From: a virus
Taxonomy: Duplodnaviria; Heunggongvirae; Uroviricota; Caudoviricetes
IMG/VR virus record: IMGVR_UViG_3300045988_014834
Span: 1-41,350 of that record
Length of the DNA stretch: 41,350 bases
Strand: one strand, 5' to 3'
Position numbers and translations under genes: made by a program. Position 1 is the stretch's first letter, and each line of letters begins with the position of its first letter. Under the pieces are notes generated by a model. The model worked only from the letters and a program-made list of their open reading frames with translations, was not told the origin of the DNA and did no database searches. Positions 1 through 41,350 of this stretch are shown in pieces.

Positions 1-55
1 CCCCGTCGCGCTGCACGTTTTTTCTTATCGATTACACCCATCGCGATAAGCGCCT
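1..55. repeat. Terminal direct repeat, identical to 41296-41350; circular closure or terminal redundancy
   Basis: Read directly: first 55 nt equal last 55 nt of the window. Confidence 0.9.
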
Positions 56-139
56 GTTCGTGTCCGTCGGCTATAGAATCAAACTCTCTGATTTTATGCT
101 TATCCACAAACTCGTAGGTGGCGAACCTGTACAGCGCGT

Positions 140-556
140 CTACTTTTCCTGTAATGCTTTGCGCTCGGCGTTATGGAACGCGGCCACCTGTGTACCTAAT
201 GCCCTGAACTGGTCCAGCAATTTGTTAAATGCTTCTTTAGAGAAAGGCTCATCGAAGCTCCAGCCGTTTACGACTTCTGCCGCGAGTTGTCGGTTGAGGT
301 CTTCGGCCAGTTCGTTAACCGCCAGGTTATATTCAGTATAGTCGCCGGATTCTTTGGCGGCTTTTTCCAGCTCTTCGAAACGCGCCAACCCGCGGCGGTA
401 CGCGATAATGAAAGCACGTCCGGCTTTAACGGCGGCATCCGCATCGGGACTTACAACGTTAAGCCACTCCCCTGAGTCTTCGCCATTTGGCAGGAGAATT
501 GGCATCTTCTTGCCTACCAGTGCTTTCTCTTCGAAATAAAAATCAGAAAGTTTCAT
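140..556 (-). CDS. Tail assembly chaperone (lambda G-like), 138 aa
   Basis: Sits between major tail protein and tape measure genes on the late strand; its 3' end is overlapped in the -1 frame by an ORF that runs to the tape measure start. Confidence 0.5.
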   Translation of the reverse strand: MKLSDFYFEEKALVGKKMPILLPNGEDSGEWLNVVSPDADAAVKAGRAFIIAYRRGLARFEELEKAAKESGDYTEYNLAVNELAEDLNRQLAAEVVNGWSFDEPFSKEAFNKLLDQFRALGTQVAAFHNAERKALQEK

Positions 557-664
557 TCTTTAATCCTTTGGTTAAGAGGTTACAGGTTAAGGGTAAATGC
601 GCCAGACGGGAACCACCCGCTTTTCGTGTGCGACACTAGGCGCAAACTTATTCTAGCACACTAC

Positions 665-693
665 TTGCACACCCCAATATAATAGGGTACTAT
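665..693 (+). promoter_or_regulatory. Early promoter: -35 TTGCAC, 17-nt spacer, -10 TACTAT
   Basis: Sequence TTGCACACCCCAATATAATAGGGTACTATTCAC, nearly identical copies at 8523 and (reverse) 20188-20216. Confidence 0.6.
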
Positions 694-723
694 TCACTCA
701 CACCAACAATGAAGGAGTTTAAA

Positions 724-915
724 ATGTCCAGTTTACCAGTTTCCTTAATTCTGTTTGCACTACTAGCTTATTTTGCACCTTTCCTGGTTGCGTACTTCCG
801 TAATCATAAGGCGAAGTTAGCTATATTCATGGCTAACCTGTTTCTTGGTTGGGCTCTGCTGCCGTGGGTCTTTATTTTAATCTGGGCGTGCAACTCGAAT
901 GTTAACGAGAAGTAA
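724..915 (+). CDS. Small two-helix membrane protein, superinfection-immunity-like (Imm family pattern), 63 aa
   Basis: AAGGAG 6 nt upstream of the ATG at 724; two hydrophobic helices; motif YF.P....YFRNH...LAIF.ANLFLGW...PW..ILIWA matches my recollection of the Imm_superinfect family. Confidence 0.55.
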   Translation: MSSLPVSLILFALLAYFAPFLVAYFRNHKAKLAIFMANLFLGWALLPWVFILIWACNSNVNEK

Positions 916-953: not shown

Positions 954-2084
954 ATGGCCCAGAAGAAAATAACCGACGAACAGTTACAGGAAGAATTGAA
1001 CGCCGGGATGAAGAATATCGACATTGCCCGTAAATACGGCATCTCCGACCGCGTTATTCGTATTCGCAAAGCGAAGCTGGCTAAGAAAGGCGTAGGCCAC
1101 GGGCGTGACGTTAGCCATCTCGTGCCGGACGGCTACAAGATTAAAGGAACGTCATCCCTGGTGGACGAGTTCGGCAACACTAAGCTGCAATGGGTTAAGA
1201 CCGACACCGATGCGGAACGTCAGGTCGAGTTAATGAAGGCCGTAATCGAGGGCATGAAGTCAGAGATTACCCCTGTTGCGCCTGTTAAAGCGACTCGAGC
1301 CAAACGCGACGACAAGCTACTCAATCTTTACACTGTATCTGATTTCCATCTCGGTATGCTGGCATGGGCCGACGAGAGCGGCGACGACTGGGATATGAAG
1401 ATTGCAGAAGACCTGTTCTCCCGCTGGTTCGATGCCGCGTTTCAGAAAGCACCGGATGCTGGAACAGGGGTTATTAACCTGCTGGGCGACCTTGCACACT
1501 TTGATAGTCTGGATGCCGTTACCCCGGCGAGTGGTCATGTTCTTGACGCCGACACCCGTTACCAGAAACTTGTCCGCTACATGATTCGCATGGTCCGCCG
1601 TGTTGTAGATATGGCGCTCGTTAAGCATAAAAATGTTCGCTTGCTTATTGTGCAAGGGAACCACGACGAGAGTGGCATGATTTGGTTAGCTGAGATGTTC
1701 AGTACGCTGTACGACAATGAGCCTCGTGTGTTCGTCGATACGTCGCCGGATGTTTACAAGATGGTGCAACACGGCAAAACGACGTTGTTCTTTACACACG
1801 GGCATAAATGCCGGTTTGAGGTGGTCGAACCCATTATGATAGCTAAGTTCAGAAAAGCATTTGGCGAAAGCGAGTACAGTTATGCACATGTTGGGCATCT
1901 CCACCACCAAAAGATCGTAGAAAGCAGGAATATGGTAGTGGAGCAGCATCGCACTCTCGCGGCGAAAGATGCATATGCTTCTCGCGGCGGGTGGATGTCG
2001 GGCCGTAGTGCAAACGTAATTACTTATAGCGCCGAATATGGCGAGGTCGCACGTTTAACTATTTCACCGGAGATGCTGGGATGA
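954..2084 (+). CDS. HTH domain fused to a calcineurin-like metallophosphoesterase, 376 aa
   Basis: N-terminal HTH-like segment (NIDIARKYGISDRVIRIRKAK); ordered phosphoesterase motifs DFHLG, GDLAHFD, GNHDE, HGH, GHLHH. Confidence 0.6.
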   Translation: MAQKKITDEQLQEELNAGMKNIDIARKYGISDRVIRIRKAKLAKKGVGHGRDVSHLVPDGYKIKGTSSLVDEFGNTKLQWVKTDTDAERQVELMKAVIEGMKSEITPVAPVKATRAKRDDKLLNLYTVSDFHLGMLAWADESGDDWDMKIAEDLFSRWFDAAFQKAPDAGTGVINLLGDLAHFDSLDAVTPASGHVLDADTRYQKLVRYMIRMVRRVVDMALVKHKNVRLLIVQGNHDESGMIWLAEMFSTLYDNEPRVFVDTSPDVYKMVQHGKTTLFFTHGHKCRFEVVEPIMIAKFRKAFGESEYSYAHVGHLHHQKIVESRNMVVEQHRTLAAKDAYASRGGWMSGRSANVITYSAEYGEVARLTISPEMLG

Positions 2085-2311
2085 CTTCAAAATATGACCA
2101 TACACTCACCAACACCGCAGGCGATTCCATTACATGTGATGTTTATGATGTGCTAAGGGCCTTCGTTATCCACGACCCCGCGCTACAACACGCATTAAAG
2201 AAACTGCTATGCATGGGCGGCAGGGGGCATAAGGACGCGGATACAGACCTTAACGAAGCAATTGAAAGTCTGGAGAAGTTACGGGAGTACCGAAGTAATA
2301 TTGATGAGTAA
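2081..2311 (+). CDS. Hypothetical protein, 76 aa, coupled to the phosphoesterase gene
   Basis: ATGA stop/start overlap with the upstream gene; followed by a hairpin terminator. Confidence 0.45.
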   Translation: MTSKYDHTLTNTAGDSITCDVYDVLRAFVIHDPALQHALKKLLCMGGRGHKDADTDLNEAIESLEKLREYRSNIDE

Positions 2312-2340
2312 GAAAAAGGCCCCGAAAGGGGCCTTAGTTT
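2312..2340. terminator. Bidirectional intrinsic terminator (GGCCCC-GAAA-GGGGCC)
   Basis: Perfect GC hairpin flanked by an A-run and a T-run, between convergent genes. Confidence 0.7.
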
Positions 2341-3512
2341 TATGCGTAGGTTATACGCTGAATAACAATAGACGACTGGTACTGATTGCCTGTGGACTGT
2401 CCTTCTATGCTTTGGGTGATTGACTCAGGCCCGCCAATCTCTGGTGTAACCGCCGTAAGTTCCGCGCGTTTCAGGCTGAAAGACATAGCCCCGTTTACCC
2501 CCGCCAGAATAGAGTTAATCTCTACCTGCTGCTCGTTGATAAACTTCTGAATCATCGCCATGTCGTACAGTTTACCGGAGATGGAGAAGGTGTTAGCTGC
2601 ACGGCTACGCTCCACAAACGCTACGTTAGTGTTACCAAGTTCGAACTGTGCGGACGCGCTGTTATCGTTGGTGATGGTCAGACTGTCACAACGCAACGGC
2701 GTAGAGCCGTCGAACACGGAAACGTCAACCGAGGAGAATGGCTCGTCACCAAACGTAACAGAGGAGAAATCAGAACCTGTCGGCGGCTCGGTGAGAATCT
2801 CCTGGCTGCGCCCGATGAACGGGAAACTGCCCGTTACCATCGCATTAACGGCCTGCTCGACAGTGAAACCGGAAACTTCCACACCTTTAGTAAGCGTGTA
2901 CGCGTCAGCCCCGCCGCACTGCCCTTTGTACCAGGTGAGAATAGAGAACGTCTTGCACTGGCTTCCTGTTTCCAGTTTATCCCCTGTCTTAGCGGCGGTA
3001 GTTACTGTCTCAGTGGTAAGAGTATGTTGGATACCCGCACCTGTAACAACAGTTGCACTTACCTCGGTTACGATAAACGGTTTTGCGTTGTCGCCCGTTA
3101 AGTCGGTAAACGCAATCAGGTCGCCCACTTCAATGCCGTCGGTAATAAAGCTGCCATCAGCACGGGTGAACGTCTTGCCCGCCGGTGCGACGGTAATCGA
3201 CAGCCCGGACAGAAAAACACCGGATTGCCACGTAGAGCCTAACGCGCCCGCTAACCAGTCATCCTGGCTTTTCGAGCTAAGCTCAATAGCATATTCACCA
3301 CTAACCTGTTTGTTACCGGTGCGGATGGACGTAGTTTCACGGCTGCCATCCAGTTCGTTGGAGGTCAGCGTGTCACGGGTAATGGCAGGAACGCCACCTG
3401 TGTTACGCAGCGGCGACCATACCGGGTTACTTGGTGTTACGCCCGGGGTAACTTCCGCCACATAGAATTGCGCGGTATTCGCGCCCTTAAAAGGAGTTGT
3501 AGCCATATTCAC
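2340..3512 (-). CDS. Major tail (tube) protein, 390 aa
   Basis: Position between neck genes and tail chaperone; Thr/Ser/Gly-rich beta-type composition; terminator immediately downstream. Confidence 0.5.
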   Translation of the reverse strand: MNMATTPFKGANTAQFYVAEVTPGVTPSNPVWSPLRNTGGVPAITRDTLTSNELDGSRETTSIRTGNKQVSGEYAIELSSKSQDDWLAGALGSTWQSGVFLSGLSITVAPAGKTFTRADGSFITDGIEVGDLIAFTDLTGDNAKPFIVTEVSATVVTGAGIQHTLTTETVTTAAKTGDKLETGSQCKTFSILTWYKGQCGGADAYTLTKGVEVSGFTVEQAVNAMVTGSFPFIGRSQEILTEPPTGSDFSSVTFGDEPFSSVDVSVFDGSTPLRCDSLTITNDNSASAQFELGNTNVAFVERSRAANTFSISGKLYDMAMIQKFINEQQVEINSILAGVNGAMSFSLKRAELTAVTPEIGGPESITQSIEGQSTGNQYQSSIVIQRITYA

Positions 3513-8579: not shown

Positions 8580-9308
8580 ATGTTTACTTTGAAACGTGGG
8601 GATTGTCTGGAGTTGATGCATGACGTACCAGATAAGAGTGTAGACCTTATTTTATGCGATTTACCTTATGGTACGACGCAAAACAAATGGGATACGGTAA
8701 TACCTTTCGATGCCCTATGGGGCCATTACATGCGTATTTCTCGCGGTGCTATTGTGCTAACAGCAGCGCAACCTTTCACTAGCGCGTTGATTATGAGTAA
8801 TGCTAAATTGTTCAAATACTCGTGGGTTTGGGATAAGGCAAATAGCACTGGATTCCTTAACGCTAAAAAGCAACCTTTACGCCGAACAGAGGACGTGGTT
8901 GTATTTTATGGCTCACAGCCAACCTATAACCCTCAAATGGAAGTTAGAGGTAAGCCCCGTAAGAAAGGTGGGTATATTAAAAAAGACGGCTCTGACAACT
9001 ATGGGTCTTTTAAAAGTGTAGAATCTGTTAGTAATGATTACTACCCCACCAATTTGATAGAAATATCTAATGCTAATAGGTCGGAAAAGTGCCACCCCAC
9101 CCAAAAACCAGTAGCGTTGATGGAATACCTGATTAAGACGTATACAAACGAAGGGGATACAGTTCTTGATAACTGTATGGGCAGCGGGACGACCGGAGTT
9201 GCGTGTGCGAACACAAACCGGAAGTTTATAGGCATGGAGTTAGACCGTGATTACTTCCGTATAGCCAGAAGACGCATATCTGAAGCATATAAAACTAAGG
9301 CCCCTTAA
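8580..9308 (+). CDS. Orphan DNA methyltransferase (N6-adenine/N4-cytosine beta-class), 242 aa
   Basis: Catalytic-motif region DLILCDLPYG followed later by the AdoMet motif HPTQKP...VLDNCMGSGTT; no restriction enzyme partner nearby. Confidence 0.85.
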   Translation: MFTLKRGDCLELMHDVPDKSVDLILCDLPYGTTQNKWDTVIPFDALWGHYMRISRGAIVLTAAQPFTSALIMSNAKLFKYSWVWDKANSTGFLNAKKQPLRRTEDVVVFYGSQPTYNPQMEVRGKPRKKGGYIKKDGSDNYGSFKSVESVSNDYYPTNLIEISNANRSEKCHPTQKPVALMEYLIKTYTNEGDTVLDNCMGSGTTGVACANTNRKFIGMELDRDYFRIARRRISEAYKTKAP

Positions 9309-9320
9309 GGGGCCTTTTAT
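9295..9320. terminator. Bidirectional hairpin terminator (AAGGCCCC-TTAA-GGGGCCTT)
   Basis: Perfect hairpin between convergent genes. Confidence 0.65.
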
Positions 9321-32826: not shown

Positions 32827-32855
32827 AAAAGGCCCCTAAAGGGGCCTTAATTTTA
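32826..32855. terminator. Bidirectional terminator (GGCCCC-TAAA-GGGGCC) between replication arm and tailspike
   Basis: Perfect hairpin with flanking A and T runs. Confidence 0.7.
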
Positions 32856-38172: not shown

Positions 38173-38654
38173 ATTCGTGGAAACGTCGATTGTGCGGTTC
38201 CGTAGGCTTTAAGGAAACATCCCAGCCCATCACCATAGCAACCATACAAATCCGGCAGATTGTTAACAAGACACTGGTTCTCAAGGTCCTGGAACGGCGA
38301 TTTCTCGGCGGTTGCCGTGAAAGTAATCGTCCAGTTAATGCCGTCTTCGGTGGACTCAGCGATGGTGGACGTGATGGTTACCTGGTAATCCTCGATACCC
38401 ATGCCGAAGTCATGCGCCATCCAGAAACTTGACGCACCGCCATCGACTTTCTCAAGGAACGACAGAAACGCCTGCCGCCCTAGCGCCGATGTAATCAGGG
38501 TTACGCTGACAGGGAACACGTCGTAATACGTGTCACGGCCCTGGCGCACCCCGCCGCCAGCTAAATCAACGCTCCATACGTTGTTGCGTCTGGTCATTGA
38601 GTAGCCTTTCGACACTATAGGACGGAGGCCACGTGGGAAATATAAGTCGCTCAT
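38154..38654 (-). CDS. Minor/distal tail protein (lambda M-like), 166 aa
   Basis: Immediately downstream of the tape measure gene. Confidence 0.4.
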   Translation of the reverse strand: MSDLYFPRGLRPIVSKGYSMTRRNNVWSVDLAGGGVRQGRDTYYDVFPVSVTLITSALGRQAFLSFLEKVDGGASSFWMAHDFGMGIEDYQVTITSTIAESTEDGINWTITFTATAEKSPFQDLENQCLVNNLPDLYGCYGDGLGCFLKAYGTAQSTFPRIWDPMQ

Positions 38655-41077
38655 TATTTGAACCCCGGCGCGTTTCTTGTGGCCTTGCGGGCCTTGCTAA
38701 TCTTACTGTTGCTGTTCTGCAAAGAGGCCGCCACTTGCTCCTCGATGATGATGCGCAAACGACCTTCATCATCTTGTTCGGTGGATACGCGGCCAATCTG
38801 ACTCGATGTGTTATTTACAATGGTAACATTAGTTGGTCCGCTATTTCCGCTATTATCGCCGTTTAACTGTTGTCGTGTTTGGCTTGCGTTCACCGCGCGC
38901 CCCGCCCCTGCCATCTTGATAATCTCGGGGCCGCGCTCACCAACAAGATAGCTGCCGCCCGCGTTCATTTGACCTCCTTGTTCGCGGAACCCCGTTAAGG
39001 CTAACGCTTGGGTACCCGCAACCGTTGATGTGATGCCTGCCATCGCCGGTGCGCTGTTTGTCCCTAGAGTAGCCAGGGACGCCATAGCTGCAGCGGGGGC
39101 ATACGCTGCAGCAATCGCCGCGCCGGTAGCCGATGCTGTCGCGATGGACGCCGCGGATGCCATTTGTCCTATAATCATGTTTTTCAGGTACTCCACCCCC
39201 ATCTGCGTTAGCCCTGAAACGACTGAGGACAGAATGGCGTTACCGAGGTTCGCCATTGCTTCGCTAGCGGTCTGTGTGCCGTTAATGAGGCCAACTATGG
39301 AGCTGGATGCGGATGCACCAACAGCGTCAAGGGAATCCATTAACATATTGTTCCACTCGGACTGGTTGCGGAAACGCTCCTCGGCCGCGGCGGCCAACCC
39401 ATCGTTATACTGCTTGTCCAGTTCAGCCCGTGCCTGCAACGCGACTTCATGTACGGAGTTTTCTTGTGCCTCATATTCCTCTATAACCGCAAGACGCTTC
39501 TGCCGTTCAAGCTGTAAGTTTGCTATGGGGTCGATTGATGCCAGAACCGCTACACCTTGTTGCAGTTTTTTCTGTTCCTCGGCTAACTCTTTATCAATAG
39601 CGTCTTGTCGTTTTTGCCCGTATTGAAGAACTATTGCGGTTTTCGCCTTTTCATATTCTTCAGCAGTTAGCGCCCCTTCTTTTCGGTATTTAGCGGCCTC
39701 CTTAAGTTTCTGCTGTTCCTGAGCGTCAATAGCCTTTAACTCGTCGTTGTTCTGACGGGCCAGAGTATCGAGATAATCTTGCGCCTGTTTACGCAATTGC
39801 TCCGCTTTCTTAGCGGCGGCTTTCGCATCTTTGTCGTTGGTGTTTCCGGCTCCGCCATTTCCGCCCTTTTTATTAACAAGGCTGGCCAAGTCAATTTCCT
39901 GCTTCTTGCGCTCGTCGTACTGCTTGCGCTGTTCCTCAATTTCTTTCTTACGCTGCTTAGACCTGTTGGTAATGGCCTGTGATTCCGCCTCTGCGCGTTT
40001 TATGCTGGCGGCGTATGCGGCGTCGGCCTCTGCGGTCAGGTTTTTAAATGTGAGCGCTGCCGTTTTGCTCGGGTCAAACACGTCGGCAAGGGTCTGTCCT
40101 AACGCTACGGCGTAATCGTCAATGCGCTGGAACCACGCAATAACCTCGTGGAATGTCTGCTGGATGTCAGGCAGCCACTCACGGATAGCGTCCGGTATAG
40201 TTCCCAGCGAGTCGGACATATCAACGGATTTGTCCTCTGTATCGAATGCCAGGTCATCCAGGGCATCAGAAATAAACTTGAACGACTCATTGAACAGCGT
40301 TACCCAATCCTGGAGCGTGGCTGCTATCTCATTAGACGCTATAGCGTCGGTGAGCGCTGTAATAGCATCTTCCGCTGTTGCTGCTTGTTCACCTACCGCG
40401 TCACCAAAACCGGATTGTGCTACCGCGAGAACAAGGCCATCGAAGGAGTCGGCGAGGCTTGACAATTGACCGTCTAATGTCTTCGAGCGCGTCTCCATCG
40501 CTCCGGCGAAATCAGTGTTGCCAATGTTTAGCAGGTATTTCTGAATCTCTTCGGAGTTCTTCTTAACCGTGGTTGTTACGCCGCGGAACGTGAAAGAAAC
40601 GGTATCCGCCTGTTGCGACGACTTGATGCCAAACTCTTTTAGTCGCTCAAACTCAAAGGTACTGGCGTCGGCAACTGCCTCAATCATCTGATTAAGGTCT
40701 TTACCCATCGCCGCCGCGGTGTTGCCGTAGGAGATTAATGCCTCTTTGCTGGGGTTCAGACCCAGGGCCACCAGCTTAGTAAAGCCTTCCACCGCCTGAT
40801 TAAGCCCGTATGGTGTTTCTTTTGCGAACTGTTGCAGGACGCTGAAAGCCTTAGCCGCGTTCTCTGCGCTTCCGGTCATCGTGATGAGGCCGGAGTTCAG
40901 CTTGTCGAAGTTGCGCTGGGAGTCCACCAGCGCGCTGAATACCTGCTTAGCAGTTTCCAGACTGACAACGGCGGCGGCGGCAGCGCCCGCAGCTTTGGTA
41001 AGCCCGTTCAGTTGTGATGTGGTTTTATCGACGCCGGTCGATGATACTCGTACTATCAAACTAGCGGTATCAGCCAT
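38654..41077 (-). CDS. Tail tape measure protein (track start is a TTG at 41092; likely ATG at 41077)
   Basis: Long Ala/Gln/Glu-rich coiled-coil protein with Gly-rich C-terminal region; sits between chaperone and minor tail genes. Confidence 0.8.
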   Translation of the reverse strand: MADTASLIVRVSSTGVDKTTSQLNGLTKAAGAAAAAVVSLETAKQVFSALVDSQRNFDKLNSGLITMTGSAENAAKAFSVLQQFAKETPYGLNQAVEGFTKLVALGLNPSKEALISYGNTAAAMGKDLNQMIEAVADASTFEFERLKEFGIKSSQQADTVSFTFRGVTTTVKKNSEEIQKYLLNIGNTDFAGAMETRSKTLDGQLSSLADSFDGLVLAVAQSGFGDAVGEQAATAEDAITALTDAIASNEIAATLQDWVTLFNESFKFISDALDDLAFDTEDKSVDMSDSLGTIPDAIREWLPDIQQTFHEVIAWFQRIDDYAVALGQTLADVFDPSKTAALTFKNLTAEADAAYAASIKRAEAESQAITNRSKQRKKEIEEQRKQYDERKKQEIDLASLVNKKGGNGGAGNTNDKDAKAAAKKAEQLRKQAQDYLDTLARQNNDELKAIDAQEQQKLKEAAKYRKEGALTAEEYEKAKTAIVLQYGQKRQDAIDKELAEEQKKLQQGVAVLASIDPIANLQLERQKRLAVIEEYEAQENSVHEVALQARAELDKQYNDGLAAAAEERFRNQSEWNNMLMDSLDAVGASASSSIVGLINGTQTASEAMANLGNAILSSVVSGLTQMGVEYLKNMIIGQMASAASIATASATGAAIAAAYAPAAAMASLATLGTNSAPAMAGITSTVAGTQALALTGFREQGGQMNAGGSYLVGERGPEIIKMAGAGRAVNASQTRQQLNGDNSGNSGPTNVTIVNNTSSQIGRVSTEQDDEGRLRIIIEEQVAASLQNSNSKISKARKATRNAPGFK

Positions 41078-41350
41078 GATTTCTACCTTCAAAGATTGCT
41101 TCTAAGCCCATGATAATGTCTATCTCGAACAGGCTAAGCTGTTTTTGCGTAACATCGAGATAGGCTTTCAGGTCTTGCCACGTAACGGATTCTCTTGCGA
41201 ACAATACTACAGCGTCCTCGCGCGCGTGTCGCGTAAACTTAATGTCGCAATACGTCTCAAAGGTGGATATAAAAAGGGGTGGGCATTCTGGCCCACCCCG
41301 TCGCGCTGCACGTTTTTTCTTATCGATTACACCCATCGCGATAAGCGCCT
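41070..41350 (-). CDS. T-like -1 frame extension of the tail chaperone; in the circular genome it continues as 56-170
   Basis: Open minus-strand frame from the stop at 171-173 through the junction to 41070, ending in overlap with the tape measure ATG; no convincing own start codon. Confidence 0.45.
   Translation of the reverse strand, partial: ALIAMGVIDKKKRAARRGGPECPPLFISTFETYCDIKFTRHAREDAVVLFARESVTWQDLKAYLDVTQKQLSLFEIDIIMGLEAIFEGRNHG
41276..41299 (-). terminator. Terminator-like hairpin GGGGTGGGC-ATTCTG-GCCCACCCC with T5 on the minus strand
   Basis: Read from sequence; lies inside the chaperone extension frame. Confidence 0.4.
41296..41350. repeat. Second copy of the 55-bp terminal repeat
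   Basis: Identical to 1-55. Confidence 0.9.

Follow-up and report, generated by a model that had tools for sequence, protein, structure and literature searches.

The window analyzed here is the whole 41,350-nucleotide stretch of IMG/VR virus record IMGVR_UViG_3300045988_014834, and its two ends together carry a tail assembly chaperone locus made of two overlapping reading frames, G and T. We regard it as very probable that T is expressed as an extension of G through a programmed -1 ribosomal frameshift of a siphovirus tail assembly chaperone, in the G/GT arrangement of phage lambda and in a member of the genus Kagunavirus. The likeness to the conserved chaperone frameshift of long-tailed phages, proposed in a first-pass annotation of the same DNA, is supported by protein families, gene order, conservation among relatives and a deposited junction in phage K1G. 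The frameshift is already known or annotated in near-identical K1G-like coliphages, and it is a real but ordinary member of the lambda G/GT class.

The chaperone locus across the record ends

In an exact end-overlap test, positions 1-55 of the window were a copy of positions 41296-41350. With its ends identical over 55 bp, the record represents a genome that is circular or circularly permuted, with 41,295 unique bp in the circle and an arbitrary opening point, which fell within T. The duplicated 55 bp resemble a k-mer artefact of the assembler, and the headful (pac) packaging reported for a related phage (PMC6776780) fits the circularly permuted assembly of the record. Megablast searches with both ends retrieved 43-117 phage records at 93-97% identity, nearly all of them Escherichia phages of the genus Kagunavirus (Guernseyvirinae), and the best matches included K1G, K1ind1-3, fTaEco03, RP180 and ULINTec2. 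By these matches, the genome is a Kagunavirus (K1G-like, Guernseyvirinae). The features of the locus, in window coordinates, are the following.

140..556, minus strand: gene G, 138-aa tail assembly chaperone, the zero-frame product (open reading frame list, Pfam, PHROG)
143..149, minus strand: predicted shift site G_GAA_AAG (sequence; family-wide A_AAG)
1..143, minus strand: T extension part 1, codons 1-48, VDALYRF... (joined-end translation; PHROG 15027)
41070..41295, minus strand: T extension part 2, to TGA 41072-41070 (Phage_TAC_18; substitution rates)
41296..41350, no strand: 55-bp terminal direct duplicate of window 1-55 (exact end-overlap test)

Gene G starts at ATG 556-554, preceded by the Shine-Dalgarno sequence AAGGA (568-564), and its 3' end reads CAG (151-149), GAA (148-146), AAG (145-143) and TAG (142-140). 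The essential tetramer A_AAG thus occupies 146-143, with the TAG immediately 3' of it and GUA (143-141) as the codon that would be read after the slip. G matched Pfam Phage_TAC_4 (PF08748) at 26.7 bits, above the gathering cut-off of 21.1, and positions 1-138 of the PHROG 15027 profile (E = 6.8e-71), and it is 97.8% identical to K1G ORF22A. Its ratio of nonsynonymous to synonymous substitution rates (dN/dS) was 0.04-0.06, a value for close relatives only, as dS was saturated in distant pairs. Among the open reading frames (ORFs) of at least 100 aa in the genome, G is the only one that ends in AAAG followed by a stop.

The ends were joined and all three minus-strand frames were translated. The -1 frame is closed by TAA at 173-171 and open from 170, nine codons before the junction codon GUA; beyond the G stop it runs from 143 to 1 and then from 41295 to 41070 (equivalently, from 143 to 56 and then from 41350 to 41070), giving a T extension of 122 sense codons that closes at TGA 41072-41070. 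The zero and +1 frames contain many stops after the end of G. The predicted G-T fusion has 260 aa (138 + 122). The T extension matched positions 139-259 of PHROG 15027 (E = 8.6e-69), a 259-position 'tail assembly chaperone' profile made from fused proteins, and the G/T boundary of that profile coincides exactly with the predicted junction K138|V139. Residues 33-117 of T also matched Pfam Phage_TAC_18 (PF23812; E = 2e-18, 66.7 bits, gathering cut-off 27). NCBIfam gave no match, a sequence search of the PDB found no relevant solved relative, and no Rfam family reached its gathering score anywhere in the window.

These results agree with the first-pass annotation, which had placed a chaperone ORF at 140-556 on the minus strand with its TAG after GGAAAAG; every coordinate was recovered from the sequence, and the chaperone identity is upheld by the Phage_TAC_4, Phage_TAC_18 and PHROG matches. 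Its further claims were that a -1 frame is open from 170 through the junction to 41070, that the record had been linearised within this frame, and that an 88-aa ORF of the ORF track is a remnant of that linearisation. Joining the ends, the check it had suggested, yielded a single 122-codon -1 frame with the other two frames closed; together with the 55-bp end identity, this confirms the opening point, and the 88-aa ORF (41070..41336) is indeed the T frame begun at its first ATG, codon 35.

The closest annotated counterpart is found in K1G (NC_027993 / GU196277), where ORF22A and a two-piece joined ORF22B (YP_009168805.1 / YP_009168804.1) cover exactly this locus at 95-97% nucleotide identity with the window. 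Both genomes have CAG GAA AAG TAG, products of 138 and 122 aa, and an 8-nt overlap with the tape measure gene; unlike in K1G, the gene in the window is split by the linearisation point. The K1G fusion built with the predicted junction (...LQEK|VDALY...) reproduces the deposited proteins ADA82267.1, YP_009168804.1, QNO11738.1 and QNO11960.1 verbatim. The fusion of the window differs from that of K1G at four residues (three in G and one in T), and this version is absent from the protein collection. Equivalent gene pairs occur in other Kagunavirus and Jerseyvirus genomes (fTaEco03, fKuEco01 and Shelanagig). fTaEco03 has a two-piece joined coding sequence (CDS) at the orthologous locus, and the Jerseyvirus Shelanagig, which also carries CAG GAA AAG TAG, has a joined CDS named 'tail assembly chaperone frameshift product'. 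The annotation of T across Guernseyvirinae is inconsistent, being given as a joined CDS, with CTG, GTG or TTG starts, or as a 'hypothetical protein', and a literature search found no mention of the Kagunavirus frameshift.

The shift site among relatives

Two sets of relatives were compared. The first used G alone as the query, to avoid selecting for an open T frame, and comprised 31 IMG/VR loci of 48-99% identity; the second comprised 80 loci obtained through alignment of the T domain, down to 37% identity. At every complete locus of the first set, G ended in A_AAG followed by TAG or TAA, and the -1 frame continued through 121-122 codons until a TGA that overlaps the ATG of the tape measure. 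All 80 loci of the second set had a -1 extension of 120-122 codons and A_AAG in the G/T overlap; in 79 of them the tetramer was immediately followed by TAA or TAG. The exception (L081) reads GCA AAG TTA TAG, with A_AAG one codon upstream and AAAGTTA as the last seven bases before the stop. A scan of bacterial and archaeal genome contigs returned one match, which was spurious.

The bases around the tetramer are more variable. Across the 80 loci, the heptamer was GGAAAAG in 62, CGCAAAG in 8, and AAAAAAG and AGCAAAG in 3 each, while GGGAAAG, GGCAAAG and GTCAAAG occurred once each and L081 was the remaining locus. The residue before the final Lys may be E, A, G, K or S, with codons (GAA, GCA, GGA, AAA or TCA) that all end in A, and the final Lys codon is AAG throughout, never AAA. 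Judged by this pattern, the conservation of A_AAG is a constraint at the nucleotide level, as expected for a slippery tetramer. The -1 window is 5-9 codons long in close relatives, and in four loci (L024, L027, L100 and L101) the -1-frame stop lies just two codons before the junction. A shift within two codons could take place only on GCA or AAG, of which AAG alone re-pairs, and it is therefore pinned to the last AAG. Some relatives carry canonical heptamers, namely the lambda-type G_GGA_AAG in Raoultella phage RP180 (L037, 1351-1357) and the dnaX-type A_AAA_AAG in the most distant loci (L116-L118). Thus, the slippery sequence of the lambda-type class is represented by a conserved A_AAG, with the non-canonical G_GAA_AAG in the window itself, and from these alignments the family is seen to sample several slippery sequences around an invariant A_AAG.

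Other candidate signals did not persist among the relatives. AGGA in CAGGAAAAG, abutting the site and resembling a Shine-Dalgarno stimulator, is not conserved and is absent in the CGCAAAG, AGCAAAG and GTCAAAG clades. GCGCTGT after the stop was invariant in the first 31 loci but gave way to GCGTTG and GCCCTG in the wider set, and it was dropped as a signal because conserved Ala-Leu residues and codon bias suffice to explain it.

The T frame also bears the marks of a coding sequence. Its Nei-Gojobori dN/dS was 0.05-0.09 in Kagunavirus pairs and 0.18-0.28 in distant pairs with estimable dS, and third-position differences predominated throughout the comparisons. By these rates, T is under purifying selection, and the substitution rates and the Pfam and PHROG matches together show both frames to be conserved, as in the lambda-type class.

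Expression of the T frame and its alternatives

In the mechanism that we propose, most ribosomes would stop at TAG 142-140 and release G (138 aa), and a minority would slip by -1 as the tRNA-Lys on AAG (145-143) re-pairs with AAA (146-144). The slip would probably occur during translocation or with the stop codon, which is decoded slowly, in the A site; in Kagunavirus it may be helped by tRNA-Glu, through near-cognate re-pairing that moves from GAA to GGA and includes a central G.U pair. Slipped ribosomes would read GUA and 121 more codons across the junction, giving the 260-aa G-T fusion that ends at TGA 41072-41070. Both the events at the tRNA level and a low efficiency of the shift are inferred. 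By analogy with lambda, the G part would bind the tape measure protein and the T part would recruit the tail tube protein (gene 3512..2340); the virion would retain neither part. A_AAG is the minimal and most efficient -1 tetramer in Escherichia coli, where a single tRNA-Lys re-pairs from AAG to AAA, and its efficiency depends on the 5' codon (PMC4066793; PMC5009743). Because the stop codon is the only conserved neighbor of A_AAG, the site may act as a tetramer plus a 'shifty stop', with P-site slippage while termination is awaited. 'Shifty stops' were reportedly described by Weiss et al. in 1987.

Several points weigh against such a frameshift. G_GAA_AAG is not a canonical X_XXY_YYZ heptamer, and it permits just near-cognate P-site re-pairing (GAA to GGA), which places it outside the class defined by a canonical heptamer and a 3' structure. 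The fold of 120 nt around the shift site was not significant (z = 0.21), and RNAalifold on 10 diverse sequences returned three pairs and no covariation, results on which a downstream stimulatory RNA structure was rejected. In reporter constructs, tetramers alone barely exceed background without a stimulator (PMC4066793). The announcement of phage Shashou reports 'no canonical slippery sequence' for the stretch from chaperone to tape measure (PMC6776780); on the sequence, this statement overlooks the CAG GAA AAG TAG site common to Shashou and K1G. In the lambda-type class, the fusion is produced at a low, fixed ratio to G, tail assembly requires it and virions lack it; a literature search found neither such data nor direct protein-level evidence of the fusion in Guernseyvirinae, whose chaperones are not virion components. 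To these points can be added the public annotations that give T its own start: CTG in Bas74, GTG in RP180, and TTG at codon 4 in Shashou (L035, MK931440, 4800-4820), although the last carries CAG GAA AAG TAG.

According to these annotations, T would be an independent gene, begun at GTG codon 13 (110 aa), at ATG codon 35 (88 aa) or at a CTG or TTG at codon 4, possibly by termination-reinitiation past the stop of G, and automated callers likewise yield 88-aa and 110-aa pieces of it in metagenomes. We consider such a gene improbable, as no candidate start has a Shine-Dalgarno sequence, including GTG codon 13 and ATG codon 35; the GTG is replaced by the synonymous GTC, GTT or GTA in close relatives, and three loci (L032-L034) have no ATG, GTG or TTG within the first 45 T codons. 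Furthermore, the protein is conserved from its first -1 codons (V-x-A-L-Y ... F-D-x-I-x-x-G-H), upstream of every candidate start. Given the lack of a conserved start codon and this conservation from the first -1 codon, the comparison indicates that independent initiation is not the conserved mode of expression of T, and such initiation would leave the nucleotide-level conservation of A_AAG and the stop unexplained.

The same conservation bears on transcriptional slippage, in which RNA polymerase would drop one A (or add two) in an A run, a known other route to such fusions (PMC5009743). The site does hold a run of A, but a short one of four residues (AAAA), reduced to three in the CGCAAAG, AGCAAAG, GGCAAAG and GTCAAAG clades. 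Polymerase slippage needs runs of about 7-9 or more, and the runs in these phages are far below that length; moreover, the adjacent stop and an AAG that never becomes AAA agree with a ribosomal mechanism, making a transcriptional origin very unlikely. The extension might also be a chance or relic ORF that is not expressed. The genome is compact and has many ATGA overlaps between genes, so that long open -1 frames after stops are not rare (median 36 codons); such overlaps inflate -1 extensions and make open-frame length uninformative as a chance statistic. However, 120-122 codons are open in 80/80 loci down to 37% identity, with dN/dS of 0.05-0.28 and significant Pfam and PHROG matches. These comparative data effectively refute an unexpressed ORF, which we give almost no credence, and by its conservation the G/T arrangement is far beyond chance.

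The programmed -1 frameshift is consequently the reading that we retain, and three more claims of the first-pass annotation stood up to the comparison. Slippage on A_AAG beside the stop agrees with the tetramer in 80/80 loci, its stop-adjacent position in 79/80 and the two-codon window in four loci; the downstream frame, whose closure in related genomes had been named as grounds for rejection, is open in all 80; and the lack of a convincing T start is seen in the missing Shine-Dalgarno sequences, the loss of the GTG and the absence of starts in L032-L034. The proposed overlap of the -1 frame with the tape measure start was found as well, and a matching 8-nt overlap is annotated in K1G.

The arrangement resembles that of lambda gpG/gpGT (Levin, Hendrix and Casjens 1993; Xu, Hendrix and Duda 2004, 2013, 2014; all as cited in PMC5009743). 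In both, the tape measure gene is immediately preceded by two overlapping ORFs, the downstream one overlaps the 3' end of the other in the -1 frame and lacks an initiation signal, the shift falls on ...A_AAG near the end of G with no stimulatory RNA structure evident, and a short and a frameshift-extended form are made (here predicted from sequence). The relative RP180 even carries the G_GGA_AAG of lambda. Lambda G-T, as reportedly described by Levin et al. in 1993, is not known to need a stimulatory structure. The window differs from lambda in matching TAC_4 and TAC_18, with no sequence match to lambda's own G and T families, in its heptamer G_GAA_AAG, which is not X_XXY_YYZ, in a shift codon at the very end of G, next to the stop, and in a three-gene opposite-strand cassette between the tail tube gene and G. 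It also shares with the A_AAG tetramer sites of IS1222 (G_CGA_AAG) and Bacillus cdd (A_CGA_AAG) the minimal tRNA-Lys re-pairing from AAG to AAA, which the identity of the 5' codon modulates (PMC5009743; PMC4066793). IS1222 and cdd-type sites, however, use pseudoknot, hairpin or Shine-Dalgarno stimulators, in contrast to the window, where the stop codon alone is conserved beside the tetramer.

Tail gene context and a hairpin within T

G-T directly precedes the tape measure gene, as the gene order of the lambda-type class has it. The neighboring genes are listed here.

38654..41077, minus strand: tape measure protein gene (PHROG 1538, E = 1.3e-165)
709-915, plus strand: superinfection immunity protein (Imm_superinfect)
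954-2084, plus strand: metallophosphoesterase / 'DNA repair exonuclease'
2081-2311, plus strand: 76-aa ORF, matching just the C-terminal part of phrog_2452
41271..41299 (stem-loop 41299..41276), minus strand: intrinsic-terminator-like hairpin and U tract (terminator scan, folding)

The T stop (TGA 41072-41070) and the tape measure ATG (41077-41075) both lie within ATGGCTGA, an overlap of 8 nt, and ATG(G/T)CTGA closes the T frame in 78/80 related loci. A Shine-Dalgarno sequence, GAAGG (41090-41086), precedes this ATG, from which the protein has 807 aa. The ORF list begins the tape measure at TTG 41092 (812 aa); the conserved ATG 41077, with GAAGG and the ATGGCTGA overlap, is likely the true start, as annotated in K1G. 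Large tail ORFs lie downstream of the tape measure gene and correspond, by position relative to the Shashou annotation, to minor tail and tip-attachment (J-like) genes. On the same strand upstream of G is the tail tube gene (3512..2340; Phage_tube_2, E = 3.2e-35), separated from G by the opposite-strand cassette of three genes (709-2311, plus). K1G has a longer 'polynucleotide kinase' at the position of the 76-aa ORF, which looks truncated here, as in Bas74. A candidate promoter of the G-T-tape measure operon can be read from the sequence at 650-677 (minus), in the divergent intergenic region, with TTGGGG, a 16-nt spacer and TG-C-TAGAAT (an extended -10); the consensus scan overlooked it because its -35 matches at just 3/6 positions.

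Within T, the RNA can form a hairpin with the sense sequence GGGGUGGGC-CAGAAU-GCCCACCCC, followed by UUUUUAUA with a UUUUU tract. Its stem has nine pairs, eight of them G-C, and its fold energy is -21 kcal/mol (z = -3.58). The hairpin spans T codons 47-55, encodes RGGPECPPLF and begins about 136 nt 3' of the shift site; it is too distant to be a frameshift stimulator, and the frameshift does not need it. It is the only strong terminator-like hairpin of the genome deep inside an ORF, others of comparable strength being at gene boundaries.

The comparison of relatives speaks both for and against a function of this hairpin in transcription. The outer stem varies by clade with matching partners (GGGGU/ACCCC, AGAG/CUCU, AAAG/CUUU, AAG/CUU and GACG/CGUU), these changes alter amino acids on both arms, and most stems are followed by a U-rich tract. 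Within Kagunavirus, synonymous changes make one stem pair vary among U-A, U.G and C-G. The covariation score over 45 distinct sequences was 0.212, against 0.111 +/- 0.016 in shuffled alignments, and 0/500 shuffles reached it. On the other hand, a control slid by +3 equals the covariation score of the hairpin. The 4-bp core GGGC/GCCC follows from conserved G-P-E-C-P codons, and the conserved peptide G-P-E-C-P..(L/I)-F accounts in part for both the core and the U tract. Two clades, the Jerseyvirus/Shashou-type clade and L104-L113, lack the hairpin. A scan of the interval between the hairpin and the tape-measure start found no promoter-like site, and therefore the tape measure and distal tail genes must be read through the hairpin. 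We hold with moderate confidence that it would be a partial intrinsic terminator after G, in RNA that most ribosomes leave untranslated; that it works as a functional intrinsic transcription attenuator, inside a frame reached only by frameshifting, is a tentative suggestion that we think more doubtful than probable.

Among the hairpins of comparable strength at gene boundaries are three near-identical palindromes, which lie between genes at 2316-2335, 9297-9316 and 32829-32848. They have the form AAGGCCCC-NNNN-GGGGCCUU (also written AAGGCCCC-NNNN-GGGGCCTT), with flanking A and T runs, and score as terminators on both strands; they may be a repeated bidirectional terminator motif of this phage group.

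For the annotation of this record, the ends should be joined and G-T entered as a -1 ribosomal-slippage CDS (556..143 + 143..1 + 41295..41070, minus strand), and the 88-aa orphan ORF should be dropped. A uniform fix for Guernseyvirinae could rest on the rule that the last codon of G, ahead of its TAA or TAG stop, is the AAG of A_AAG, which applies to 79/80 loci. The frameshift adds nothing new to tail assembly biology. If the hairpin does attenuate transcription, part of the transcripts would end after G, which would raise the RNA ratio of G to GT, the tape measure and the distal tail genes, atop the effect of the frameshift. In the boldest version, a shifted ribosome close behind the polymerase would melt the hairpin and favor read-through, and frameshifting would then be coupled to the expression of the downstream tail genes. 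The hairpin offers a small lead that the chaperone-to-tape-measure stoichiometry is perhaps also set at the transcript level.

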